A DNA stretch of 32,000 nt from Erysipelothrix inopinata (GCF_014396165.1 NZ_CP060715.1:1920001-1952000); one strand, 5' to 3'; numbered from the stretch's first letter, positions 2,391 to 16,544 are shown. Numbers and translations: made by a program. The notes: a model not told the origin generated them from the sequence alone.

Positions 2391-2933
2391 ATGTCTGCAA
2401 CCATTATTACGAAGAAAACGATTGCGAAGTCGTTCAAGAATATTATGATGACAACGCCGATACAACAAATATCAATACGCCAAATCATGGATGACGCAAA
2501 CATTAGACGCCAAACTTTTTATGACCATTTTTATGATAAATACCAATTAACAACATGGATCTATGAACAAGACTTTAAAGAGTATATTCAAGATTATATC
2601 AACTATGATCCCGTTGATAAAATTATGGTTCGTTTCTTGAACTATCTAAAGGACAATCATACATTCTATCAAAATGCTTTATCCTACCATGATCAAAATG
2701 CATTCGAAGAAACTATGCGTAATCATTTCTTTGAACTCTCGAAGGAAATATTGATGATAGAATTCAAAAAAAATAATACCACTGTAAGCCAAGATGAATT
2801 CCATGCGCTTGCGCACTTCATCTCTTTTGCTTTAGTTGGTATTATTATTGATTGGATTGACCAAGATTGTGACCAAGATGTTGATTCATTGGTTACCGAA
2901 ATTATGATTTGTATTGAGCGAATGAGCCGTTAA
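2391..2933 (+). CDS. TetR-family regulator of the DhaS (dihydroxyacetone kinase regulator) type
   Basis: GAGGTGA SD. N-terminal HTH with ISIRQIMDDANIRRQTFYDHFYDKYQLTTWIY, the IxRxTFYxHFxDKYxLxxW signature typical of DhaS-like TetR proteins. Confidence 0.75.
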   Translation: MSATIITKKTIAKSFKNIMMTTPIQQISIRQIMDDANIRRQTFYDHFYDKYQLTTWIYEQDFKEYIQDYINYDPVDKIMVRFLNYLKDNHTFYQNALSYHDQNAFEETMRNHFFELSKEILMIEFKKNNTTVSQDEFHALAHFISFALVGIIIDWIDQDCDQDVDSLVTEIMICIERMSR

Positions 2934-3923
2934 TTACCATGACGGAGCATTCGTTTTTTGATTCAAGTACTCAAGCCACATAGAATCTCTAAGCGGCAAG
3001 CAAGAAACCGAAACACCTTTCATATCCATACTTGTCATGAGGCTTCCCACTTTCACAAATGAACACTCAATGTTGTCTAATTCAATGAGTTGCATTAAAT
3101 CATGATAGAAAATAAGTAATTCCATTTCTGGGGTTCCACCTAACCCATTCACTAAGATGGCAATCTGATCCCCTTTTTTCACATCACATTGTGATTTTAA
3201 TTTATTCCAAATTTCATTAGCAAGTTCTGCTGAACCCCTGAAGTCTTCAATGCGATAACCTGATTCGCCATGGATTCCCATTCCGTAAGAAACATGACCA
3301 AACTCCAAATCAAACATAGGTGTTGCTTTGCCTGGTAATGTTCCTGATGAGAGTGCAACACCCAACGTATTAAGTTCCGATAGAGCACTTTCAGCAATCA
3401 CTTTTAATTCATCCAATGATTTTCCTGCTTGAGCTGCGGCACCTATTATTTTATGAATAAACAGTGTACCTGCAACACCACGTCGTCTCTTTTTAAAGGA
3501 AGAGTCTTCAACAGAGCAATCGTCATTCACAATAATTGAGTCGACTTTGATACCTTTTTGACGCGCCATATCAATGCCAAGGTTAAAAGAAGTAACATCT
3601 TCAATAAAATTTTTAACAATAACAAAGACACCTTTTCCTTCATCAGCAGCACAAATCATTTGATACACTTCATCAGGTGTAGGCGGTACAAAGACTGCGC
3701 CCATCGCACATGCTTTTAACATACCTGCTCCGACATAACCAATGTGTGCTGGTTCATGGCCGCTACCCCCACCACTTACCACAGCAACGCTATCATACTG
3801 CTCTTTCGAGACGAAGACACCCGTATCTTCGATACGGAAGATAGCATCATGATAAAGTGATGCGAATGCTGAAAATAAATCATTTTCTACAGAATTAGGA
3901 TTATTGATTAATTTCGTCATCAT
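2934..3923 (-). CDS. dhaK: DhaK-family protein: dihydroxyacetone kinase Dha-binding subunit, or its regulatory paralogue DhaQ
   Basis: Motifs GGGSGHEP and GMGIHGESG; about 330 aa. AAAGGAGA SD (the second ATG at 3920 has better spacing). No dhaL or dhaM in the window. Confidence 0.85.
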   Translation of the reverse strand: MMTKLINNPNSVENDLFSAFASLYHDAIFRIEDTGVFVSKEQYDSVAVVSGGGSGHEPAHIGYVGAGMLKACAMGAVFVPPTPDEVYQMICAADEGKGVFVIVKNFIEDVTSFNLGIDMARQKGIKVDSIIVNDDCSVEDSSFKKRRRGVAGTLFIHKIIGAAAQAGKSLDELKVIAESALSELNTLGVALSSGTLPGKATPMFDLEFGHVSYGMGIHGESGYRIEDFRGSAELANEIWNKLKSQCDVKKGDQIAILVNGLGGTPEMELLIFYHDLMQLIELDNIECSFVKVGSLMTSMDMKGVSVSCLPLRDSMWLEYLNQKTNAPSW

Positions 3924-4017
3924 AAATCTCCTTTAACCTATTTTAACACTAAATCTTAATTTGGGGTATGTTAAAGGTGAACCTTAACAAAATAAAAAGA
4001 AACAACGCGGGTGCACG

Positions 4018-4590
4018 TCATTTCTTCTCAGCAATATAGGGTTCTGTTGTTTGATCAATCCATTCATTGAAACTATTGAGAATTTTCGCAAAAAATTGCA
4101 TGGTATCTTCTTTAAAGTCGCCATTCTCATCAACATATTGATAGATACGACCAATATACACTTCAGGTTGAGCCATGACATAACAATTCATAGAAGTTAA
4201 GATTTGTCTCAAATGATGATTTGCTCCAAAACCTCCCAAACTTCCTGGTGAAACAGAAATAATGAGTGCAGGCTTATGTGACCATTCACTATTTCCAAAA
4301 GGCACAGATGCTGCATCAATAGCGTTTTTAAGGACAGCTGGAATTGACCGATTGTGCTCAGGCGTTATAAAGATATAAGCATCCTTTTCCGTTACTTTTT
4401 CCCTGAATACTTGATAAGAAACGGGAAGATTTTCAATATCTTCATCATATTCTTGGTTATACATTTCTAATTGTGATATATCCATAAGCTCATATTCACG
4501 AGAGTCATCCAGCTCCATAAACGCTTTCGCTACCTTCAAACTCCACGAATCCTTACGAAGACTCCCTACTAAAATTCCTACTTTTTTCAT
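4018..4590 (-). CDS. NAD(P)H-dependent FMN reductase family oxidoreductase
   Basis: MKKVGILVGSLRKDS and ITPEHNRSIPAVLKNAID motifs. AGGAGAAAA SD lies only 11 nt after the upstream stop. Confidence 0.8.
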   Translation of the reverse strand: MKKVGILVGSLRKDSWSLKVAKAFMELDDSREYELMDISQLEMYNQEYDEDIENLPVSYQVFREKVTEKDAYIFITPEHNRSIPAVLKNAIDAASVPFGNSEWSHKPALIISVSPGSLGGFGANHHLRQILTSMNCYVMAQPEVYIGRIYQYVDENGDFKEDTMQFFAKILNSFNEWIDQTTEPYIAEKK

Positions 4591-4601
4591 TTCGTTTTCT
4601 C

Positions 4602-6509
4602 CTATTGGTTGAATATCGATTCTAAGTTTTTTGAAACAGTTTCCATTAACAACATGGGTAAACGTTCCAATTCTTCACCAACATGAACCCCTCTCATATT
4701 TTTAACATCATCGTTGAAAATTGTATCAAATACCTTGATGTCATTGTCACTGTTATGCCCTATTTGAAAGGCATAGACTTCAACATATTGATTGAGAAGT
4801 CCTTCTAATGCTTGCTTTGTCGTACCTGGAAAACTGGATGCACCATCCGTAATCTCAAAAACCATTTTAATTTTTCGACCTGATTTCATAGCATTAATAT
4901 CACTTCGTTCTAATCCATTTAATATTTCACGAAGACACTTACCATCATCTGTAGTACCATACTGACCATCGATACGTGTAATTGATTGAATCAATTCACT
5001 GCGATCTTGCTTCTTGTTATGAGAGTCATTATCCTTAATTTGTTTAAAGTCTGTCCCAAACAACCATGTCGATGTTTGTATCGACAAAGTCTGGTTTAAT
5101 TTTTGAGCATTTTGTTTGAGATACAGGTCAAAATCTTCTAATGAAAGAAGTGTCATAGCCATCGCCTTACGCGCCGCATCAATCTTCTCAGCATCCATTG
5201 ATCCTGAATTATCAACTAAGAAGATGATTTCAATTTCTTGAGGAAGTTTCTTTGTACTTGACTCAAGCTCATACCTTGAAAATATGGGTAAGTTCTTATA
5301 ATTATGAAGTTGTTGTGCTTCATAAAACTGCGCATAATTAAATACTAAATCGTTAACATTCAACTTCCCTTTATTTTGCATGGTCTTTTTAACACTTTGT
5401 TCTTGTTTTGCATTTCCGACAAGTTTTGCCCAAAAAGACTTCATTTGTTGTCGTTGTTTCGATACTGCATTTTCGTAATAGTGGAAGAGCTCCATTTCTT
5501 CGGCATTAATACCAAAATCGGAAAACCCTTCATTTTTATTGATAGAATCTTGATACATTTGTTGATTTTTTATTTCTTCTTGCATCATGTCGTCTATAAT
5601 TTTTTCTTGATCTTCTTGAGACGATTCAACACTATCCTCACTTGATTCTTGTTTGTCATCTAAGAGCTCGTATTCTCCTTCTGACATTTCCCCTTCTTCC
5701 TCTTGTGTCATCATATGGTCAATTTCATAGCACCAAAGTTTTTTATATTCAGGATAAATGATATTTCGGATAAAATCATCTTTAACATCAAGATTTGCAT
5801 CCATAACAATAAACTTTTTAAATTGACGTTTCACAACGACATGAAGCGACTCGCCAAGTAATTGCAATTTAATGAGTGCTTCATCAAAACTGTATTCACC
5901 TTCATAATTTTCATTAATTTCATAAATCATAAAGGATCTAATAAATTCTTGTTGGGCAGGAAGCAAAGAAGTTTTTGCATATTCATAGCCATTTTTTCCA
6001 AGATAAGCGTTTATTGAATTCATTACTTCTGAATCTTGGTACACGGGGCACTTCTCCAAGACTGTGAGATAAGCAAGATACTGATCGAGAATAAATAAAA
6101 AATCTTTCATCTCATTTCTTACGTAATAACTTAGTTTTTGATTCGTATAATTAGGATTGCCTTTAAGTTTTTTTGACAGAAGATAGACAATTTGATTCAT
6201 TTCTTTTTGCCAAGAATTAAGACGTTTTGCGTACAGTTCTGTTTCTGATTGCCATTTTGAGTAATGGGCTAATTCATAGTAGACATGCCACATGACTTCA
6301 TGTTCATTCCAATCATTGTAAAGAAATTGTTCAAGGGGAATCACAACTTGTTTATGTTTTACATCCACTTTAATTTTTTCTAATTGAGGATCACTAACAT
6401 AATGGAGGCCTGAATCCTGTGTGTATGTCACAAGATTTCGTACTTCACGATTTAAAAACATGTCAAAGTTTTGTGTTGCTTGCTCAATTAAAACCGCTTC
6501 TTTTTCCAT
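4602..6509 (-). CDS. VWA (MIDAS) domain protein with a long N-terminal region and a D/E-rich tract (NorD/CbbO-like partner of an AAA_5 ATPase)
   Basis: C-terminal IIFLVDNSGSMD (DxSxS MIDAS motif at 5199-5213). Acidic tract QEEEGEMSEGEYELLDDKQESSEDSVESSQEDQEK. GGAGGAA SD directly after the upstream stop. Confidence 0.8.
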   Translation of the reverse strand: MEKEAVLIEQATQNFDMFLNREVRNLVTYTQDSGLHYVSDPQLEKIKVDVKHKQVVIPLEQFLYNDWNEHEVMWHVYYELAHYSKWQSETELYAKRLNSWQKEMNQIVYLLSKKLKGNPNYTNQKLSYYVRNEMKDFLFILDQYLAYLTVLEKCPVYQDSEVMNSINAYLGKNGYEYAKTSLLPAQQEFIRSFMIYEINENYEGEYSFDEALIKLQLLGESLHVVVKRQFKKFIVMDANLDVKDDFIRNIIYPEYKKLWCYEIDHMMTQEEEGEMSEGEYELLDDKQESSEDSVESSQEDQEKIIDDMMQEEIKNQQMYQDSINKNEGFSDFGINAEEMELFHYYENAVSKQRQQMKSFWAKLVGNAKQEQSVKKTMQNKGKLNVNDLVFNYAQFYEAQQLHNYKNLPIFSRYELESSTKKLPQEIEIIFLVDNSGSMDAEKIDAARKAMAMTLLSLEDFDLYLKQNAQKLNQTLSIQTSTWLFGTDFKQIKDNDSHNKKQDRSELIQSITRIDGQYGTTDDGKCLREILNGLERSDINAMKSGRKIKMVFEITDGASSFPGTTKQALEGLLNQYVEVYAFQIGHNSDNDIKVFDTIFNDDVKNMRGVHVGEELERLPMLLMETVSKNLESIFNQ

Positions 6510-6520
6510 AAAGTTCCTCC

Positions 6521-6856
6521 TTACTTATATAAATCAATGGCAAATAACGATTGATAATCTCTGAGCTTATTGATGCTCACAGCCTGCCAAATACCGTCAA
6601 GATTTTGGACGATAAATCCATCTTTCCATTGTGTTCCTAACACGATATCGGTTGTTAAATGAATCCAGGGATTTAATGTCCATTCATCAAAGAATCGTTC
6701 AAGTAAATACGTTTCCCCTTCATCATTTAATATAAGTGCCTCATCGCGATTCGCCACAACCGAGTATAAATGACCAGTCATACTGTCAATTTTTCGACTT
6801 TCAAATGTATCTAAACTAATAATGACGCACTGTCCCGAATCTCCTAATGCAATCAA
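6521..6856 (-). CDS. C-terminal fragment of a frameshift-interrupted beta-propeller-like repeat protein
   Basis: The track ORF starts at a TTG, but this frame is open without a start codon up to 7036. The extension reads ...SAITCDDSYVYIGTQDGSILVYSIKD..., continuous with the upstream ORF after a -1 shift. Confidence 0.6.
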   Translation of the reverse strand: MIALGDSGQCVIISLDTFESRKIDSMTGHLYSVVANRDEALILNDEGETYLLERFFDEWTLNPWIHLTTDIVLGTQWKDGFIVQNLDGIWQAVSINKLRDYQSLFAIDLYK

Positions 6857-6972
6857 GTGATTCTCATCGAGTAATTTGAGACTTGTAATTGATGATTCAA
6901 ATACCCCTACTTGATGATTAAGTTCAAAGGAATCTTTAATCGAATAGACAAGAATTGATCCATCTTGTGTAC

Positions 6973-7629
6973 CTATATAGACATATGAATCATCACATGT
7001 AATTGCAGACCATCGATCCGATACATCATACCCACTTCATATACATCATTCGATCCACGAAGTGCAACACATAGATTTAAGTCATTGAGATACACAACAT
7101 GATGAGATGACATGAAAATGATATCTTGACCCCAATCTACAACCTCACTAGACGCAATATTTACGGATTCAGTTTCGATGACCTTAATGTTTTCATTCGT
7201 GATAATTTCAAAATGAAGGCATTCGGATTGGTTTGTATAACACTCTAATTCATGATCATGAGCCATCATTCCAATTATCTTCCCTTCGTAAAAAGGAAGA
7301 TTCATGTTTTCAAGAACTAAGCCATTGACTTTATATATCTTCAAGGCACCACTTAGATATAAAGCCCCAAAATGTGTATCATCGATAAGCGATACCTGTT
7401 TTACCATATCCAAGCTCTCTTCTTCATCCATGACGCGAAAATTTGTTGTTTCAAAGTTAGTTTTCTTCCGAAAATCATCTTTGACTTGAAAATAAGGTAA
7501 CAGTTCGAGCATTATCTGGTGTTGTTGGAGTTTAAGTTCTAAAAGTTCCTGTTCCGAAAGAGTATCCAATTGAATGTGTTCAAGTTGGTCTTGATATTCT
7601 TTCATTAACTCTGAAGGGTTAAGTTTCAA
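6973..7629 (-). CDS. N-terminal fragment of the same frameshift-interrupted beta-propeller-like repeat protein
   Basis: TTG start overlaps the upstream TGA (AATTGAAA). About 40-aa strand-rich repeats follow a helical N-terminus. It ends in an out-of-frame tail MMYRIDGLQLHVMIHMSI. Confidence 0.6.
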   Translation of the reverse strand: MKLNPSELMKEYQDQLEHIQLDTLSEQELLELKLQQHQIMLELLPYFQVKDDFRKKTNFETTNFRVMDEEESLDMVKQVSLIDDTHFGALYLSGALKIYKVNGLVLENMNLPFYEGKIIGMMAHDHELECYTNQSECLHFEIITNENIKVIETESVNIASSEVVDWGQDIIFMSSHHVVYLNDLNLCVALRGSNDVYEVGMMYRIDGLQLHVMIHMSI

Positions 7630-9152
7630 TTGTCATCACCAGTTTCTTTAAGATAGTCAATCAAGAAACTCGTGTATTCTAAATTCTCTATTTCCTGATT
7701 CATATTCTGAATATCGGAGAGTTTTAGCGTTTCAATATGAGCTGCTTCATCACCAATTGTTTGTCTTAACTGTAATGGAACGGATTTATGTCGTGGTTTT
7801 TGACCGTAAAGAAGACCAATAATATCATAACTGCAGTATGTAGTAAGCGGTCCTCTAACGTAATCACTATCGTTGCTACGTATTTCTTCATAGTTCGTGA
7901 TACCTTCACCGACTTCTTTACTTCTGACAGACCATCCTTCTCGCTCTGAAAAGAATCCATAGCGGACTGCTTGAGACAAGATATAGTTCTGATCATCAGC
8001 ATTGGTTATGGAACTGATAAAGCCATCCCACAATGCCATAGTCAAACTCTTTTCTTCACCACAATTCCAGTTCTCTAGTACATGGATAATATTTCGAATT
8101 GAGAGTACTGCTTCACGAAGTTCAACAGTTGATTTACCATCAGCTTCAAATTCGCTAATTTTACCCATGAATACATTTTGTGTAAGACGACTTAACTGTG
8201 CAAATCGATATAATTCTTTCAAGGATTCCGGTCCATTAGGGAGTTGAATTGCACCTTCACGGTTGGCAAGAGTCGAAAGAATGACACGATAAAGTTCATT
8301 GTTAGTGTCATCAACATTGATATTTAAATCACCGACTAAATCTTGTGGTACGTAGTTATATTCAATCGTCACAAAACGAGATTGGAAGGCAGGATTTAAT
8401 TGATTTGTTCCTTCATATTGAACCATTTGAGTAGAAAGGTTTCCTGTACCGATGAAAGCAAATCCTTTCGCAATCTTAACAGGACCAATCCCCGTAATAT
8501 AGGCAGTTTGTCCTGCGTGACGTTGTAATAAGTCATTCAAGGCAATTAAGTTTTGCATCGCAATGGTATTTAGCTCATCAACAATAACAGGACGTCCTTG
8601 TCGTAATGCAATCAATATTTCTCGTTCTATTTTTTGAATGGTTGTACCAAAAGAGTTATTTTTAGCAATCAGTAAATCCGAAAAACTCTTCCATATTTGA
8701 ACCTTTAACTGAAGCTGTTCTTCTGGTTTTAAACCTACAATTTCATGTTCGTGATGTTGTAACCAATTTAAATAATCATCAACCATCGTATTCAAATACG
8801 ATTCAAAAGAATCACTTGAAAAGTTTTGTTCTAAGCTCAATGTCTTCTCCACAAACATATCTTCATAAGTTAAGTTATGAGAACCCGAAATAAAGAGTGG
8901 TTGTAAGGATTCAATTTCTTCTTCAGACCCCACTTCATAAATATGCTCGTAGTATGCTTTCCACTTCTCGTTCAGACGTTTAAACGCACATTTCGCATCA
9001 TCTTCACTTGCATTTTTATGCTCTTGAAACCATGCCTCAAGATCGTCTGCAAGATGATCATTGATTTTATTTTGAATGGTAAAGTCTACGGCAGATTCAA
9101 TCGCAATTTGTGTCTTTCCACTACCAAGATGTCCGACAAGATATACGGGCAC
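7626..9152 (-). CDS. AAA_5/MoxR-class ATPase, ATPase-containing fragment of a frame-interrupted gene
   Basis: Walker A GHLGSGKT (9111-9134), Walker B VIVDELN, sensor-1 IGTGN, NPAFQSRF, and a lid region with LREAVLSIRN. The track start is only a GTG inside the G-run where the frame changes. Confidence 0.8.
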   Translation of the reverse strand: MPVYLVGHLGSGKTQIAIESAVDFTIQNKINDHLADDLEAWFQEHKNASEDDAKCAFKRLNEKWKAYYEHIYEVGSEEEIESLQPLFISGSHNLTYEDMFVEKTLSLEQNFSSDSFESYLNTMVDDYLNWLQHHEHEIVGLKPEEQLQLKVQIWKSFSDLLIAKNNSFGTTIQKIEREILIALRQGRPVIVDELNTIAMQNLIALNDLLQRHAGQTAYITGIGPVKIAKGFAFIGTGNLSTQMVQYEGTNQLNPAFQSRFVTIEYNYVPQDLVGDLNINVDDTNNELYRVILSTLANREGAIQLPNGPESLKELYRFAQLSRLTQNVFMGKISEFEADGKSTVELREAVLSIRNIIHVLENWNCGEEKSLTMALWDGFISSITNADDQNYILSQAVRYGFFSEREGWSVRSKEVGEGITNYEEIRSNDSDYVRGPLTTYCSYDIIGLLYGQKPRHKSVPLQLRQTIGDEAAHIETLKLSDIQNMNQEIENLEYTSFLIDYLKETGDDN

Positions 9153-9709
9153 CCCAAATTCAGAGAATCAATAATCTTATGTTTCGTTTTTTGGACATAA
9201 GGTACAGCTACCAATCTTTGGTTTGCTTGCGACTCAATATCTTCCAGCCATTGACGTGAATAATAGAATTGCCATGCTTCTGGTGATTTTGAAATGATAT
9301 CTTTAATTTCTTGAGTATATGATGCGATTTGATCAACACGTAATCGTGTCGCATCAGTACTACGCATCGAAGCATTTCTTGACGGATCAAAATGATTTCG
9401 TTCCCAACTTAAGAAAAACTTTTGGTAAGCAATATCATTTTCTAGTGTTTCAATACGATCTTTTTGTGCATCAAATTCTTGGTTTAGATACGATTTGTAT
9501 TGAGGATAGAGTTTATGAAATTGTGGTTGCGATTGTTCTTGCGAATCAAACATACGAAACGTTGAGAAAAATGATTGGTCTTCACTGATATCGAGTCGTG
9601 TTTCACGCTCAATATTTTGACGTGCAACCAATCTCATATCTTCGATAAAATCAGCATCAAGGCTCTCTAGTGTCGTGATGTTTTCAATTTCTTTTTTGTT
9701 TTGAATCAT
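9086..9709 (-). CDS. N-terminal domain fragment of the same AAA_5 ATPase gene
   Basis: ATG 9709 has AAGGAGAG SD 8 nt upstream. The frame ends ...KIIDSLNLG, then 21 out-of-frame residues. Joined by a -1 shift it reads ...IIDSLNLG-VPVYLVGHLGSGKT, the normal strand-to-P-loop context. Confidence 0.7.
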   Translation of the reverse strand: MIQNKKEIENITTLESLDADFIEDMRLVARQNIERETRLDISEDQSFFSTFRMFDSQEQSQPQFHKLYPQYKSYLNQEFDAQKDRIETLENDIAYQKFFLSWERNHFDPSRNASMRSTDATRLRVDQIASYTQEIKDIISKSPEAWQFYYSRQWLEDIESQANQRLVAVPYVQKTKHKIIDSLNLGCPYILSDILVVERHKLRLNLP

Positions 9710-9725
9710 TTTTTTATCTCTCCTT

Positions 9726-9766
9726 AAAAAAAGTAATAGGACCCCGTTGACTTGGGATCCTATCAC
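9726..9766 (-). terminator. strong rho-independent terminator after ohyA
   Basis: 13-bp stem GTGATAGGATCCC/GGGGTCCTATTAC with two G-U wobbles, an 8-nt loop, then U7. The U-tract abuts the SD of the next gene. Confidence 0.8.
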
Positions 9767-9779
9767 AGGCAGATACGAA

Positions 9780-11573
9780 TTAGATTATTTTGTATTCTTT
9801 GAGTAATACTTCAACATCTGTATCTTTGATTTGTTTCATTAATTTACGACGAACAAGTGGAGGTAAGCTAATGTCTGGTTTTTCACCATCTAACAAGCTA
9901 ACACCTGCATAGAGTAAGTAACGAATATCATAACGTGAGTTATAAACTTCAGGAACACCTTTTTCAACACCTGTAAGAACGTATACAGCTTCCATAGCAG
10001 TACGTCCTGAGTATTCGATTGTAAATACAGTGTCACGTCCTGGATCGTCAAGTGTTTCTGCGAATTGTCCTAAGAATGCAAAGTTTACACCGTTTGATGG
10101 CACTACAAGAGGACGGTCACCGTCTTCACGAGGCATAAATTGTGATGTAATGTAAGGCATCATAACTGGAATAGCTGTACATGATTCTGCAAGTTCTTCG
10201 ATTTCATCGACAGGAACCCCAATGTGGTATAACCATTCTTTTGTGATTTCTTTACCTGTACAATCACGCATTGGTTTCTTGATATAATCTCCATCAACAT
10301 CTGAGAAGAGACCGTATACCCAAACAACAACATCTTTTTCTGGTTGACCATAATATTGTTCTTGACGGTTGATTGTCCAGCTCATTAACCATGATGAGTC
10401 AGCAGCTGATACGATACCACCTGTAACTGTTTTACCAGTATATGGAGAACGTTTTGTGATTTTTTCAATGTATTCTGGAACACGTTCATCATGACATGTT
10501 ACAGTACATGATTCCCAACTTGATTTTTCAGGATCACCACAGAATTTTTGTGGACGTCCGAATTCATCGGATTGTTTAGCAATGTTTTCCCAAAGTGTCC
10601 AACATCCCTTAGCTTCTTTAATGAATGGTGCTGGAGTATTATCATCACCGTATGCTGAACCTTCAGTCATGGAACCATTTGTAATGAATACTAAGTCATT
10701 TTCTGTAAGGTCGATTGAAATATCATTACCTTGTTTGTCTTTTGCGACAATCTTCTTAGCTACTTTTTTAGTAGGTGTAATATCAAATTCAACGTTATCT
10801 ACTGTAACACCATATTTGAATTGTGCACCGTTGTCTTTAAGGTATTTAACCATTGGTAAAACAAATGATGTGAATTGATCATGTCTTGAGAATTGAAGTG
10901 CTGATAAATCAGGAAGTCCATCAACGTGGTGAATGAAACGATTTAAGTATAGTTTCATTTCAAGAGCACTGTGCCAGTTTTCAAAGGCAAACATTGTTCT
11001 CCAGTATAACCAGAAGTCACTATTTAGAAGTTCATCTGAGAAGATATCTTCAATTGTTTTATCTTCAAGTGATTCATCACTCATTGCAACGAAGGAAGCA
11101 AGTTCTTTAGCTGCTTTTTGACCTAAGTTAAATTTACCGTTGTCATAGCGTTCACCTTGGTTTTTTGTAACACGGCAATTGCTAAAGTTTGGATCATCGT
11201 AGTTTGTATAATAGAAGTGATCTAACACTGACATGCTAGGATCTTCTGTTGAAGGTAAAGAACTGAAAAGGCTCCAAAGCACTTCAAAGTGGTGTCCCAT
11301 TTCACGTCCACCACGTGCAACGTAACCAGCGTTTTCACGAACGGCACCATCAAGTGAACCACCAGGTATATCAAGTTGTTCTAAGAATGTAATTTTACTT
11401 CCATCCATTTTCGCATCTCTAATTAAGAAACACGCTGCTGATAAAGCACCAATACCTGTACCGATAAGATAAGCTTGTTTATCTTCGATTCCTTCTGGCT
11501 TACGACTGTTTACAAGAGCATGGTATGAACCATTTGTAAGTGTAAGTCTTGGATCTTTTGTTTTTAATTCCAT
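9780..11573 (-). CDS. ohyA: oleate hydratase (MCRA family, FAD-dependent fatty-acid hydratase)
   Basis: NSRKPEGIEDKQAYLIGTGIGALSAACFLIRDAKMDGSKITFLEQLDIPGGSLDG matches the N-terminal FAD-binding region typical of MCRA/OhyA; about 597 aa. I chose ATG 11573 (GAAGGAAA SD) over the longer SD-less track start at 11615. Confidence 0.9.
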   Translation of the reverse strand: MELKTKDPRLTLTNGSYHALVNSRKPEGIEDKQAYLIGTGIGALSAACFLIRDAKMDGSKITFLEQLDIPGGSLDGAVRENAGYVARGGREMGHHFEVLWSLFSSLPSTEDPSMSVLDHFYYTNYDDPNFSNCRVTKNQGERYDNGKFNLGQKAAKELASFVAMSDESLEDKTIEDIFSDELLNSDFWLYWRTMFAFENWHSALEMKLYLNRFIHHVDGLPDLSALQFSRHDQFTSFVLPMVKYLKDNGAQFKYGVTVDNVEFDITPTKKVAKKIVAKDKQGNDISIDLTENDLVFITNGSMTEGSAYGDDNTPAPFIKEAKGCWTLWENIAKQSDEFGRPQKFCGDPEKSSWESCTVTCHDERVPEYIEKITKRSPYTGKTVTGGIVSAADSSWLMSWTINRQEQYYGQPEKDVVVWVYGLFSDVDGDYIKKPMRDCTGKEITKEWLYHIGVPVDEIEELAESCTAIPVMMPYITSQFMPREDGDRPLVVPSNGVNFAFLGQFAETLDDPGRDTVFTIEYSGRTAMEAVYVLTGVEKGVPEVYNSRYDIRYLLYAGVSLLDGEKPDISLPPLVRRKLMKQIKDTDVEVLLKEYKII

Positions 11574-11700: not shown

Positions 11701-11740
11701 CAATAAAAACCCCATGTCCGATTTTTAGACACAGGGTTTG
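11701..11740 (-). terminator. rho-independent terminator of the degV-tetR operon
   Basis: AAACCCTGTGTC / GACATGGGGTTT stem (12 bp including 2 wobbles) followed by TTTTATT, 43 nt after the TetR stop. Confidence 0.7.
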
Positions 11741-11782: not shown

Positions 11783-12361
11783 CTATAGTGATGCTTCACT
11801 TCGTTTCAAAGAGTTTTGAATGTTACCATCAAAGAGGTAACCAATACGATCAACGATTTCTTCAGGCTCTTCTTTCATGCCTGTTTCAATCCAACGAATA
11901 ACCATCGCTGTTAGTGCACACTGATAAAATGATGCAATCAATGAGCGATCACTTTCTAACGTATTCATCGCTTCATCTTCCGCAGCCTTATCAACATAAC
12001 GTTGCATCACACTTCCCGAAACTTTATAAATATAGTCAATCAATTCTTCTTGTTGCATTGAGTCATACACATGATAAATTGCGGTTTTATTATCAATTGC
12101 GAACCGAGCCGCATGAATAAAACTTTCTTCCCAAGAGAGAGTATCATTGTATTCTTCAATAACTCGTTCTAATTCAGTTTGAAATATCTCTGACAATAAT
12201 TCGTAGATGTCACTATAATAATAGTAAAATGCATTTCTATTAATATCACATGCGAGTGCAAGATCTTTAACCGTAATCTTCTTTAAAGGTCTCTCATTCA
12301 ACATTTTAATAAAAGCATCGTGTATTAATTGCTTTGTATATTGTTGTACCAATATAACCAA
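11783..12361 (-). CDS. TetR-family regulator, DhaS-like subtype
   Basis: ITVKDLALACDINRNAFYYYYSDIYELLSEIF is the same signature as the 2391 gene. The start is uncertain: TTG 12361 directly abuts the GAAAGG SD, while TTG 12352 has better spacing. Confidence 0.8.
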   Translation of the reverse strand: MVILVQQYTKQLIHDAFIKMLNERPLKKITVKDLALACDINRNAFYYYYSDIYELLSEIFQTELERVIEEYNDTLSWEESFIHAARFAIDNKTAIYHVYDSMQQEELIDYIYKVSGSVMQRYVDKAAEDEAMNTLESDRSLIASFYQCALTAMVIRWIETGMKEEPEEIVDRIGYLFDGNIQNSLKRSEASL

Positions 12362-12367
12362 CCTTTC

Positions 12368-13255
12368 TTAATCGATTCGCTCGTCTCCCCAGAAAAAGAG
12401 TGCAATTGTTCCCGGACCAGTGTGGCTTCCAATAGTCGTTCCAATTGAATTAATTTTAACAGGACCATCAAGATTTGGGAATTTCTCTTCAATTAATGTT
12501 GCAAGTGTTTGCGCTTCATCATAGAATGCTGATTGCGAAATAAAACATTTGCCACGATAATCAACGCCTTCTTGTGCATGATTTGTCATTTCTTCCAACA
12601 TCTTTCGTTCTACCTTCTTACGACCACGAACTTTATATTGAGGCGTTAATTGTCCCTTTGAGTTCATATTAAGTACCGGAATAATGTTTAAAGATGTCGC
12701 AATTGTTGCTTGTGTTTTTGTAATCCGTCCACCCTTAACATAGAATGACAGGTCCGTTGAGAAGAACCAGTGGTGCATCTTAAGTCTGTTGTCAGATGCC
12801 CATTGGTAAAGTGCTTCCAGTTCCATACCCTCATTTTTAAGATTTGCTAAAGTATCCATGAATAGACCATAACCCGATGAAGCACCTAAAGAATCCACTA
12901 AGAAAATTTTACGTTCAGGAAATTCTTCAAGTAGCAGTTCTCGTGCTATTTCAGCAGAATTAAAAACTCCTGAAAGGCCACTAGATAGACTAACATGAAG
13001 AATATCTTGACCTTTTTCTAAGAAAGGTCTGAAGTAATTCTCAAATTCTCCAGGACTTACTTGTGATGTTTGTGTTTCTGAACCTTCGGATAATCGTTTG
13101 TAAAATTCATCAAACGGCATACTCTGTCCTAAATCATCAACATACTCAACACCGTCAAGTGTATAGTGGAAATAGACTACATTGATATCTTTTTCCTTAA
13201 AGTAAGGTGCATCCAAATCCGCTGTTGAACAACAACTTAGTATATAATCGCTCAT
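12368..13255 (-). CDS. DegV family (FakB-like) fatty-acid-binding protein
   Basis: N-terminal STADL, C-terminal IGSHTGPGTIALFF; about 295 aa. AAGGAGA SD. Confidence 0.9.
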   Translation of the reverse strand: MSDYILSCCSTADLDAPYFKEKDINVVYFHYTLDGVEYVDDLGQSMPFDEFYKRLSEGSETQTSQVSPGEFENYFRPFLEKGQDILHVSLSSGLSGVFNSAEIARELLLEEFPERKIFLVDSLGASSGYGLFMDTLANLKNEGMELEALYQWASDNRLKMHHWFFSTDLSFYVKGGRITKTQATIATSLNIIPVLNMNSKGQLTPQYKVRGRKKVERKMLEEMTNHAQEGVDYRGKCFISQSAFYDEAQTLATLIEEKFPNLDGPVKINSIGTTIGSHTGPGTIALFFWGDERID

Positions 13256-14649: not shown

Positions 14650-15270
14650 ATGAGTCAAAAACAAATCAATGAAATTCTGAATAAAATAGAAATGGATCAG
14701 GAAAATTCACAATTTAAAGCTATGGGTTGGAAACCCATTGTTTCTGTACATCCCAATGCCAAGATTTTAATTATTGGGCAAGCACCAGGTTTGAAAACCC
14801 AGAATATTGGGAGTGTATTTCATGACCAAAGTGGGGATCGCTTACGTGAATGGTTGGGTGTCACTGAAGCACAGTTCTATGATCCAGCACTATTTGCGAT
14901 TTTACCCATGGATTTCTACTTTCCTGGAAAAGGTAAATCAGGTGATTTGCCACCGCGAAAGAATTTCGCAACAAAGTGGCATCCACTCCTTTTGGAACAG
15001 ATGCCACATATCAAACTTACCATTTTGATTGGATCTTACGCCCAAAATTACTATCTCAAAAATCGATGTGAGAGAAATCTAACCGAAACAGTTCGTAATT
15101 TTAAGGCTTATTTGCCTCAATATTTCACGATTGTACATCCTTCACCTCTTAATAGACGATGGATGGCCAAAAATCCATGGTACGAAACAGATGTCCTCCC
15201 AATCCTTAAGCAGAGTGTTAAGGCTATACTAGAATCTGATAGCCCCCTTGTTGAAGTTTCTTCTCAATAA
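14650..15270 (+). CDS. uracil-DNA glycosylase superfamily protein
   Basis: IIGQAPG (motif A-like) and HPSPLN (motif B-like). ATG 14650 with AAAGGGGTGA SD is preferred over the track start at 14614. Confidence 0.7.
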   Translation: MSQKQINEILNKIEMDQENSQFKAMGWKPIVSVHPNAKILIIGQAPGLKTQNIGSVFHDQSGDRLREWLGVTEAQFYDPALFAILPMDFYFPGKGKSGDLPPRKNFATKWHPLLLEQMPHIKLTILIGSYAQNYYLKNRCERNLTETVRNFKAYLPQYFTIVHPSPLNRRWMAKNPWYETDVLPILKQSVKAILESDSPLVEVSSQ

Positions 15271-16417
15271 TTGAAGCTGTATCAACACTGGGTGCCTCAT
15301 ATGCAATTTTCGCAATACAATAGTTAATCTTCATATTAGAATGGAAACGATCGTGTTCAACATTGACGATGTTTCCTTTTTCATTTGCAATGATTTCAAT
15401 TATTTCATGCAAGGAACCCGAACGATCTGGAATTTCCACTTTGAACTTAACCAATCGACGTTGTTGGAATAAGGCTCTACTTACTACTTTATTAAGAAGT
15501 TCTATATCGATGTTTCCCCCTGAAAGCACACAAGCGATACGCTTATGCTCAGGAAGTTTATCAAATTTAATTGCCGCAAAAGCTGTCGCTCCTGCTCCTT
15601 CCACAATCATTTTATTCTTTTCCATGATATGTAGAATCGATTCAGATATTTCATAATCGGAAACTGTGATAATATCGTCGACATATTGTTGGGTCATCAT
15701 AAAATTACGAGAACCTGGTTCTTTTACTGCAATCCCATCAGCAATTGTTTCGACATCACTTAAACATTGAATATCTTGGTTCTGTAATGAAGCATGCATG
15801 GAGGCTGCTCCTTCTGCTTCCACACCATACACCTTGCAATGGGGCATTAAGGTCTTGATAACGTAGGCTATACCACTTATCAAACCCCCACCACCAACAG
15901 GTACGACGACTGCATCAAAATCTTTAATTTGTTCAATCATTTCCAATGCCACTGTTGCTTGTCCAGCGATAATATCATCATCATTGAAGGGCGGAACTCC
16001 TACTAATTCGTGGACATCCTTATATGCCTTAGCAACTCGTTTGGCATCATCAAAACAACCTGGAACAAGCTTCACATTTGCACCCATAGCTCTTGTAGCA
16101 GCAATTTTAGATGCTGAGCCACATTCCGGTATAAAAATGGTTGCTTTAATACCAAGGTTTTTTGCTGCATGTGCTACACCTTGTGCATGATTCCCGGCTG
16201 ACCAGGCAATCACACCACGATCTTTTTCTTCTTGCGATAATTGACTTAAGAAGTAGGTTGCACCTCTTAATTTAAATGATCCAGTTTTTTGAAGATTTTC
16301 ACATTTTAGAAATACTTCAACATCTTCTGAGAGACCTTCAGCCTTTACGACTGGTGTCTTAGTCACAATATCTTGTAATACATCATTGGCATCAAATACT
16401 TTATCGATATCTATCAT
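15224..16417 (-). CDS. ilvA: threonine ammonia-lyase (threonine dehydratase) with a C-terminal ACT-like domain
   Basis: PLP lysine motif SFKLRGA and glycine loop GGGGLISG; 397 aa. GAGGGAG SD. Confidence 0.9.
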   Translation of the reverse strand: MIDIDKVFDANDVLQDIVTKTPVVKAEGLSEDVEVFLKCENLQKTGSFKLRGATYFLSQLSQEEKDRGVIAWSAGNHAQGVAHAAKNLGIKATIFIPECGSASKIAATRAMGANVKLVPGCFDDAKRVAKAYKDVHELVGVPPFNDDDIIAGQATVALEMIEQIKDFDAVVVPVGGGGLISGIAYVIKTLMPHCKVYGVEAEGAASMHASLQNQDIQCLSDVETIADGIAVKEPGSRNFMMTQQYVDDIITVSDYEISESILHIMEKNKMIVEGAGATAFAAIKFDKLPEHKRIACVLSGGNIDIELLNKVVSRALFQQRRLVKFKVEIPDRSGSLHEIIEIIANEKGNIVNVEHDRFHSNMKINYCIAKIAYEAPSVDTASIIEKKLQQGGYQILV

Positions 16418-16431
16418 AATAACTCCCTCAT

Positions 16432-16445
16432 TGTAAACGCTAACA
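16432..16445. promoter_or_regulatory. candidate CcpA cre site TGTAAACGCTAACA in the ilvA 5' leader
   Basis: Matches every constrained position of TGWAANCGNTNWCA. It lies between a TATAAT (16467-16472, minus strand) and the SD. Confidence 0.4.
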
Positions 16446-16519
16446 TTTATACTCTTATTATATCGTGATATCTGTAGTTATGATAGATTAGAAACGACTT
16501 ACGACACTTTAACATAATT

Positions 16520-16544
16520 AAAGGCACATCAGAGATGTACCTTT
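16520..16544 (-). terminator. possible terminator hairpin after the acetyltransferase gene
   Basis: AAAGGTACATC-tct-GATGTGCCTTT hairpin on the minus strand. The trailing U-tract is weak. Confidence 0.35.

Follow-up and report, generated by a model that had tools for sequence, protein, structure and literature searches.

MoxR-type ATPases and their partners with a von Willebrand factor A (VWA) domain follow a common scheme, in which a hexameric AAA+ ring remodels a client protein through an adaptor whose VWA domain carries a metal-ion-dependent adhesion site (MIDAS), and the genes of the pair lie beside that of the client. Such pairs are widespread and, to our knowledge, few of their clients are known: Rubisco, nitric oxide reductase, methanol and CO dehydrogenases, LdcI together with respiratory complexes, and the chelatases. 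Here we analyse a stretch of 32,000 nucleotides from Erysipelothrix inopinata (GCF_014396165.1, NZ_CP060715.1:1920001-1952000), called the window throughout, with positions counted from its first letter. Three adjoining genes in it, A, B and C, encode a predicted MoxR/AAA_5-type ATPase, a predicted WD40-like β-propeller and a VWA/MIDAS protein, and are followed by a flavin reductase gene, D. The A-B-C module probably represents a previously undescribed system of the MoxR/VWA chaperone type, to which it would bring a new candidate client as well as a WD40 subunit of a new kind. It lies at the locus of oleate hydratase (OhyA) in anaerobic and host-associated members of the Firmicutes. OhyA is an enzyme dependent on flavin adenine dinucleotide (FAD) and an industrial biocatalyst.

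Amongst the described systems, NorQ/NorD, which equips nitric oxide reductase with its non-haem iron FeB, resembles the module in several respects. NorQ is the best structural match of the AAA+ core of A, and the norQ/norD genes adjoin that of the client enzyme. NorD shows the same order of N-terminal region, linker and C-terminal VWA domain as C (PMC13036017). Some lineages manage without this chaperone (PMC12067857), just as some ohyA loci lack A-B-C. The differences are nevertheless considerable: NorQ has about 260 residues and only ~11% sequence identity to the 694-residue A, which possesses an extra N-terminal helical domain of 185 residues, two helical inserts and a C-terminal domain. 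Moreover, the module has a third, obligatory WD40 subunit, and the enzyme considered as its client, a flavoenzyme that is soluble or peripheral, contains no metal centre that would need loading.

Similarly, in the Rubisco activase CbbQ/CbbO a MoxR ring and a large VWA/MIDAS adaptor reactivate an abundant enzyme encoded just upstream, and the AAA+ fold of CbbQ (5c3c, 6l1q) matches that of A; however, it has no propeller subunit and no detectable sequence relationship to the module, and its client and organisms are unrelated. RavA/ViaA and YehL-YehM-YehP-YehQ of E. coli also place a MoxR-type ATPase beside a VWA protein, yehLMPQ being a multi-gene cassette of unknown function. Comparison of A and C with YehL, RavA, YehP and ViaA using hhalign recovered the P-loop or MIDAS motif only, at probabilities of 2-6% (6% for C against both YehP and ViaA), and on these sequence comparisons A, B and C are not members of the RavA/ViaA or Yeh subfamilies.

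Gene order around ohyA

One genome per species carrying A was scanned, which gave 80 loci from Tissierellia, Clostridia, Peptoniphilaceae, Lachnospiraceae, Vagococcus, Erysipelothrix and one member of the Sphaerochaetaceae; 79 of them extend upstream of A and 75 include enough downstream DNA. In every one of the 79, the gene that immediately precedes A, in the same orientation, is ohyA. C is found downstream in all 75, and B sits between A and C in 73. A TetR orthologue (43-72% identity) precedes ohyA in 61 of the 80 loci, on the same strand in 59. When all open reading frames (ORFs) of the 80 loci were clustered, only five conserved families were obtained, namely tetR, ohyA, A, B and C, and the outer flanks vary. 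The link to ohyA holds down to 45% identity in A and reaches the Sphaerochaetaceae genome. OhyA is by position the only candidate client, and the invariable placement of A-B-C directly after ohyA suggests that the three proteins are probably a helper machine for OhyA.

The OhyA of the window scores 861.7 bits with the NCBIfam oleate hydratase equivalog NF010584 (cut-off 567) and, amongst solved structures, matches S. aureus OhyA 7kav with 704 bits and 4ia5 with 673 bits. Its counterparts at the other loci are 69-99% identical overall and 69-87% identical outside Erysipelothrix, where identity to the window proteins is 45-63% for A, 32-47% for C and about 20-31% for B, OhyA being far more conserved. 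The tetR product of the window reaches 77 bits with the DhaS-type TetR model of NCBIfam, which is below the cut-off of that model. A DegV gene occurs near the module in only four of the 80 loci; the DegV protein of the window scores 97 bits with FakB1, again below the cut-off.

The Sphaerochaetaceae locus (L061), on the 3.29-Mb chromosome of a metagenome-assembled genome (MAG), holds the whole tetR-ohyA-A-B-C set, with an OhyA 78% identical to the Erysipelothrix protein. The complete module in a spirochaete indicates its transfer as a unit across phyla.

A first-pass annotation, made from the window sequence without database searches, had described A, B, C and D as a cassette of four translationally coupled minus-strand genes. 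The positions it gave and the coupling were all recovered: the stop codon of A and the TTG start of B share TTGA in a 4-nt overlap (7626-7629), the 11-nt gap between B and C reads GGAGGAACTTT, with a Shine-Dalgarno sequence at or just after the stop of B, and that between C and D, also of 11 nt, reads GAGAAAACGAA, with a Shine-Dalgarno sequence overlapping the stop of C. A, B and C are strictly co-conserved. D, however, follows C only in Erysipelothrix loci (L001, L003, L008), that is, in one of the 80 species loci, and is absent from the other 79. The annotation had itself held that a lack of co-conservation of the four genes would speak against the cassette, and since D is confined to Erysipelothrix, the claim of a four-gene unit fails. 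The conserved partner immediately next to the module, ohyA with its tetR, had been overlooked.

The assignment of D to the flavin mononucleotide (FMN) reductases that use NAD(P)H is firm, as had been proposed (Pfam FMN_red, Table 1). The annotation went on to compare the cassette with eukaryotic midasin and to suggest D as a possible client or effector. Midasin (Rea1/Mdn1, with Rsa4 and Ytm1) does combine an AAA_5-class ATPase, a D/E-rich linker before the MIDAS and a WD-repeat protein; C has such a linker at the corresponding place, and the tight junction of C and D fits a split machine of this kind. Midasin, however, is one chain with six AAA modules, whereas A is a single AAA+ module nearest to NorQ and CbbQ. 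The MIDAS domain of midasin binds the ubiquitin-like (UBL) domains of its WD-repeat substrates (PMC8837202). B has no UBL domain, its N-terminus is a helical hairpin, and its fusion to A on two occasions makes it apparently a subunit rather than a substrate. The parallel is thus a loose one, standing for the linker and falling for the UBL domain and the number of modules; the likeness is one of parts and not of family, and serves as an analogy only. Since D is not co-conserved with A-B-C, a role for the FMN reductase as client can essentially be dismissed, and a split midasin-like machine serving D is highly improbable. The kcat of OhyA is 6-7 times higher with reduced FAD (PMC4552966), which offers a plausible reason for a flavin reductase to join the operon in Erysipelothrix.

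Folds and motifs of the three proteins

In the AlphaFold model of A (pLDDT 77, pTM 0.75; 40 homologues), an N-terminal helical domain (residues 1-185) precedes a single AAA+ module, whose core has two helical inserts between Walker A and Walker B, followed by a lid and a C-terminal helical domain. The first-pass annotation had recognised an AAA_5-style core from the motifs GHLGSGKT, VIVDELN, IGTGN and NPAFQSRF, and these are invariant or nearly so in the 40 homologues. Residues G, L, G, S, G, K and T of Walker A do not vary, nor do D378 and E379 of Walker B, N424 of sensor 1 and the arginine finger R445, and the combination of Walker A, Walker B, sensor-1 Asn and an arginine finger before strand 5 is the one expected of MoxR/AAA_5 proteins, which belong to the helix-2-insert clade. 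The window fragment of A scores 21.6 bits and the homologue P0001 20.1 bits with Pfam AAA_5 (cut-off 22), and all 40 homologues match at E ≤ 0.1 (best 2.7e-7). Owing to the helical inserts, the alignment is confined to the C-terminal half of the profile.

Comparison of this model with the PDB using Foldseek gave 19 matches at E ≤ 0.001, comprising 16 NorQ chains, two of CbbQ and one of McrB, after which dynein AAA modules follow. The best match is NorQ 9qh4 (E 2e-5, TM-score 0.56-0.60 normalised to NorQ), and CbbQ 5c3c and 6l1q are amongst the top ones. A profile search of A against PDB sequences returned nothing usable, the N-terminal domain giving a chance-level match to FliS. The model therefore supports A as a divergent AAA_5/MoxR-type ATPase with a NorQ/CbbQ-like core, and its invariant catalytic residues together with this core suggest that intact orthologues are catalytically competent. 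Segments 277-301 and 427-441 are strongly conserved, and the confidence of the model is low there; pore loops would be expected to behave in this way, and both segments are candidates for them. No membrane-spanning segment was found in A, B or C.

The C protein comprises an N-terminal domain of about 265 residues, an acidic linker that is present family-wide, a helical segment and a C-terminal VWA domain. Pfam VWA matches it with 39.7 bits (cut-off 23.8) and matches all 23 homologues as well. The intact MIDAS that the annotation had read from DNSGS is complete, with D432, S434, S436, T519 and D554 invariant amongst the homologues, and the gene lies next to that of ATPase A, as with MoxR co-chaperones of the NorD, CbbO and ViaA type. 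The profile of C against PDB sequences gave chance-level VWA matches only, none of them to NorD. A zincin-like HExxH motif was considered in the N-terminal domain (WHVYYELAHY) and rejected, because the family consensus, WHIYYELALY, lacks the second histidine.

B had been described as strand-rich and β-propeller-like, and the AlphaFold model (pLDDT 87.6, pTM 0.85) bears this out, showing 29 strands after a helical hairpin at the N-terminus. Its best Foldseek matches are WD40 proteins with seven blades, at E values of 1e-11 to 1e-9: Tex1 comes first (7v2w_H; E 1.3e-11, TM-score 0.62), and β-TrCP, WDR91, G-β and WDR61 are amongst the others, so that B can confidently be modelled as a seven-bladed WD40-like β-propeller. 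At the sequence level, Pfam repeats including WD40 gave no match to the window fragments of B at E ≤ 1, and the profile of B found weak matches to WD40 chains amongst PDB sequences (E 0.003-0.1). The family is tiny, with 62 cluster representatives at E ≤ 0.001 amongst 1.84 billion clustered proteins, which fits a single dedicated role. More divergent relatives (P0156, P0162, P0164) lie on contigs too short to reach the position of ohyA.

The 4-nt overlap of A and B is kept in most loci, and in two lineages the proteins are fused, with B on the C-terminus of A: in a Tissierellaceae MAG (L049, 6616-9966, 1110 residues; P0070) and in a Clostridiales MAG (L080, ~5405-8552). The conserved overlap and these fusions argue for a physical A-B complex of 1:1 stoichiometry. 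Across 36 members of the B family the sole invariant residue is a glutamate, E303 of P0121, which lies in a conserved motif (LLEENFxxW; window ~6700-6725) in the sixth or seventh blade. Since MIDAS domains bind an acidic side chain, E303 may, speculatively, be considered a candidate ligand for the MIDAS of C.

With respect to family resources, NCBIfam has no model for A or B and Pfam none for B, while A borders on AAA_5 and the N-terminal domain of C is unmatched. Named homologues are labelled 'hypothetical protein' or carry generic ATPase descriptions (AAA domain, P-loop NTPase, MoxR-like ATPase). The Pfam/NCBIfam, PDB profile, PADLOC and hhalign comparisons agree with the earlier view that A, B and C stand outside any characterised family. 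In the literature searched, no paper was found that links oleate hydratase to MoxR, VWA or AAA+ partners.

OhyA as candidate client and competing explanations

We give an even chance to the proposal that A-B-C is an accessory and dispensable MoxR/VWA/WD40 remodelling machine dedicated to OhyA or to its pathway. The analysis shows the gene order with its conservation, the folds and the motifs, whereas the physical complex, the identity of its client and its activity are what we infer by analogy with the MoxR/VWA systems. By this analogy, A would form an ATP-hydrolysing hexameric ring and act as the motor, and B would bind the C-terminal face of A, one copy per A, through its N-terminal helices and offer its WD40 propeller as a docking platform. 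C would be the adaptor, with a VWA/MIDAS domain engaging the pore loops of the ring and an acidic ligand, an N-terminal domain holding the client and an acidic linker transmitting force. Such a machine might load or exchange the FAD of OhyA, free a trapped state, or detach or disassemble the membrane-bound enzyme, and OhyA would thereby stay active during the detoxification of unsaturated fatty acids by the cell; the flavin reductase D would be an addition to the operon in Erysipelothrix.

OhyA binds membranes with nanomolar affinity through its C-terminus, by which it reaches its substrates, and acts as a virulence factor by neutralising antimicrobial fatty acids of the host (PMC10847778). 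Its membrane binding, together with the effect of reduced FAD, makes it a plausible client. If the link is true, it adds to the MoxR/VWA systems a client without a metal centre to load and a new obligatory WD40 subunit, and a helper machine, if real, could explain the upkeep of OhyA in vivo, and its co-expression might improve the enzyme. More tentatively, A-B-C may represent the first ATP-driven 'activase' of a flavin-dependent lipid-modifying enzyme, in which a MoxR ring, six WD40 propellers and a MIDAS adaptor would recycle OhyA by removing it from the membrane or resetting its FAD site. If this is true, the MoxR/VWA chaperones gain a new class of client and a new type of subunit, and there would be a handle for more active oleate hydratases in pathogen lipid detoxification and in biocatalysis.

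Several observations weigh against a machine dedicated to OhyA. What points to OhyA as the most likely client is gene context. In a reverse scan of OhyA against metagenome contigs, the module was present at five loci. At six others tetR accompanies an OhyA that shares 88-92% identity with module-linked ones, and none of A, B and C occurs in the following stretch of at least 7.9 kb; OhyAs at 57-67% identity, which are more distant, were never accompanied by the module. The existence of such close relatives without A-B-C indicates that the module is accessory and dispensable. Work on OhyA of S. aureus has treated it as an enzyme that stands alone, with no mention of a partner of the AAA+ or VWA kind at its locus (PMC11669549); the genomic-context section of the same paper, which deals with OhyA evolution, mentions no such neighbours either. 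Residues 1-265 of C, the proposed client-holding domain, match no solved structure or Pfam family. Furthermore, A, B or C is disrupted in ~10% of the species genomes, including that of the window.

The spacer between ohyA and A also points in this direction, as most loci have a terminator-like hairpin after ohyA. By eye, an equivalent of the window hairpin at 9733-9766 (AAAATCCCGA..TCGGGATTTT) follows the ohyA stop in most of 55 aligned spacers, and a strict rule of stem plus T-tail is satisfied by 36 of 71 ohyA-A spacers. Between this hairpin and A, loci of Clostridia and Tissierellia have a -10-like element, and the two features together suggest that A-B-C may be transcribed separately, or at a lower level by read-through.

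As side observations on these loci, tetR and ohyA (88-92% identical to module-linked copies) without A-B-C are seen on metagenome contigs L088 and L090-L095, and in L090 an ABC exporter pair follows ohyA. In the ohyA-A spacers of L009-L087 the hairpin takes the form AAAATCCCGA-loop-TCGGGATTTTAATTTAT, or a lineage-specific equivalent, directly 3' of the ohyA stop. The -10-like element is a conserved TTGATATATTGGTAATATAATAGA about 35 nt before the Shine-Dalgarno sequence of A; it contains the palindrome ATATT-N3-AATAT and could, from its sequence, be an internal promoter or operator for A-B-C.

The same facts lend themselves to a different explanation, in which the machine acts in the same unsaturated-fatty-acid stress response and on a client other than OhyA, such as membrane or lipid-handling proteins, proteins that deal with the hydroxy-fatty-acid product, or proteins that fatty acids have damaged; its adjacency to ohyA would then reflect co-regulation or co-inheritance. 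The hairpin that ends ohyA, the possible promoter of A-B-C itself and the near-identical OhyAs lacking the module all agree with it, and the OhyAs of other bacteria are active without such a partner (PMC4552966, PMC11669549). However, no other co-conserved gene is available to encode this client, and A, B and C lack membrane-spanning segments. The position and orientation of ohyA are fixed in 79 of 79 loci across very different genomes, which shared regulation alone would not demand. We regard this explanation as rather unlikely, but as the main rival to a machine for OhyA.

A defence role has also to be considered, since vWA-MoxR 'ternary' conflict systems, as proposed from comparative genomics, consist of a MoxR protein, a vWA protein and a third component, and versions with a propeller have been described (Kaur, Burroughs, Iyer & Aravind 2020, PMC7159879). 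Their third component can be of VMAP, iSTAND or FtsH type, their effector domains vary, and the FtsH subtype shares the GXXXTAKS P-loop with the propeller one. In those systems a propeller of about four blades is fused C-terminally to the vWA domain, the P-loop reads GXXXTAKS and the variable third component is anchored in the membrane, and they occur in Bacteroidetes, Planctomycetes and Proteobacteria (PMC7159879). In the present module, by contrast, the propeller is a separate, predicted seven-bladed protein coupled or fused to the ATPase, the P-loop contains GSGKT, C ends with its VWA domain, there is neither a membrane-anchored variable component nor an effector domain, and the hosts are Firmicutes in which the genes are linked to a metabolic enzyme.

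A conflict system that hitch-hikes on a mobile tetR-ohyA cassette would agree with the evident movement of the module between distant taxa, with its frequent disruption and with the position of one locus, L174, amongst defence-type genes. On the other hand, PADLOC gave no match for A, B, C, D or OhyA, plasmid and phage collections contain no homologue of protein A, and the cassette DNA has no match in plasmids. The suggestion in the earlier annotation to look for defence islands thus ended with no indication of one, the outermost flanks being variable and the constant neighbours being ohyA and tetR rather than a changing island. Because the propeller-type systems differ in every defining feature and the neighbours are constant, we consider a conflict system improbable. 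The defence-type genes on either side of the module in L174, from Anaerococcus provencensis, lie at 1-1641 and 14849-16520 and comprise Abi_2, SLFN_AlbA_2, HEPN_Apea and an anti-Pycsar-like lactamase_B; flanks of this kind were not seen in the other loci.

State of the module in E. inopinata and neighbouring features

Alignment with contig L168 (98.75% identical) and the Erysipelothrix MAG L008 (87.5% DNA identity) reveals that the window lacks one G in A at ~9155, where GGGGG is reduced to GGGG, and one G in B at ~7029, where GGGTGATGATG becomes GGGTATGATG. Both A (694 residues) and B (361/369 residues) are unbroken in the two references. The annotated E. inopinata protein H9L01_09375 (210 residues) corresponds exactly to the broken fragment of B, out-of-frame tail included. 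The first-pass annotation had obtained the right repaired lengths (~186 residues for the N-terminal domain of A and 369 for B); it had, however, noticed a broken frame in B alone, and A is frameshifted too. With A and B both interrupted, the machine is probably inactive in this genome, as judged from the sequence.

On balance, we lean towards regarding the module of this genome as a decaying remnant, in which A and B are true pseudogenes and full-length proteins are still encoded by ohyA, tetR, C and D alone. Two independent 1-nt deletions fall inside 3.2 kb of A-B, whereas the other 28 ORFs of at least 100 residues in the 32-kb window are all intact and none looks split; the chance that exactly two random errors would both fall in A-B is ~0.01. 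The deletion in B is outside any homopolymer run, broken copies of the module exist in other genomes, and lineages without A-B-C show that it is dispensable. The deletion in A, however, is in a G5 run, a classic site of sequencing error, so that an assembly error may account for it, and one assembly of the strain is available. Decay concerns the state of the module here and not its function, and is compatible with a machine for OhyA in intact orthologues.

Split or truncated module genes occur elsewhere, affecting C in L047, L067, L070 and L074, A in L072, L085 and L086, B in L083 and ohyA in L066. Several of these genomes are isolates (Anaerococcus, Peptoniphilus), and the cases could represent recurrent decay or assembly errors.

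Table 1. Genes, motifs and hairpins of the locus in the E. inopinata window
Feature	Position	Strand	Description
Gene A	7626..9709	-	694-aa expanded MoxR/AAA_5-type ATPase (predicted); frame broken here
Gene B	6521..7629	-	369 aa; helical hairpin and seven-bladed WD40-like β-propeller (predicted); frame broken here
Gene C	4602..6509	-	635-aa VWA/MIDAS protein, intact
Gene D	4018..4590	-	NAD(P)H-dependent FMN reductase; Pfam FMN_red 123 bits
ohyA	9780..11573	-	FAD-dependent oleate hydratase (MCRA family), 597 aa from ATG
tetR regulator	11783..12361	-	TetR_N and TetR_C_8, DhaS-like; first gene of the conserved module
DegV/FakB-like fatty-acid-binding protein	12368..13255	-	NCBIfam DegV 223.6 bits; outside the conserved module
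Terminator-like hairpin, tetR-ohyA spacer	11707..11739	-	13-bp stem, then T-rich tail
Intrinsic-terminator-like hairpin, 70-nt ohyA-A spacer	9733..9766	-	13-bp stem with 6 G-C pairs, then TTTTTTT
Terminator-like hairpin closing the A-B-C-D unit	3993..4030	-	
Walker A of A	9111..9134	-	GHLGSGKT
Walker B of A	8568..8588	-	VIVDELN
Sensor 1 of A	8439..8453	-	IGTGN
Arginine-finger region of A	8373..8396	-	NPAFQSRF
MIDAS DNSGS of C	5199..5213	-	
MIDAS T-D-D of C	4944..4958	-	GTTDD
MIDAS T-D-G of C	4836..4853	-	ITDGAS
Acidic linker of C	5574..5705	-	D/E-rich

Further features were noted on either side of the module. In Clostridia and Tissierellia (L009-L054), a perfect palindrome of 36 nt, AAACTGCGGTGTTCGAAnTTCGAACACCGCAGTTT, is conserved between tetR and ohyA and could, by its sequence, terminate the transcription of tetR or bind a regulator; the window hairpin at the same spot differs from it. 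Directly downstream of the cassette, a DhaQ-like Dak1 protein is encoded at 2391-3923 of the window (382 bits, just below the DhaQ cut-off), and a second, divergent TetR_C_8 regulator of the DhaS-like type adjoins its gene. These two form a separate dihydroxyacetone-kinase regulatory pair, which is kept in Erysipelothrix MAGs.

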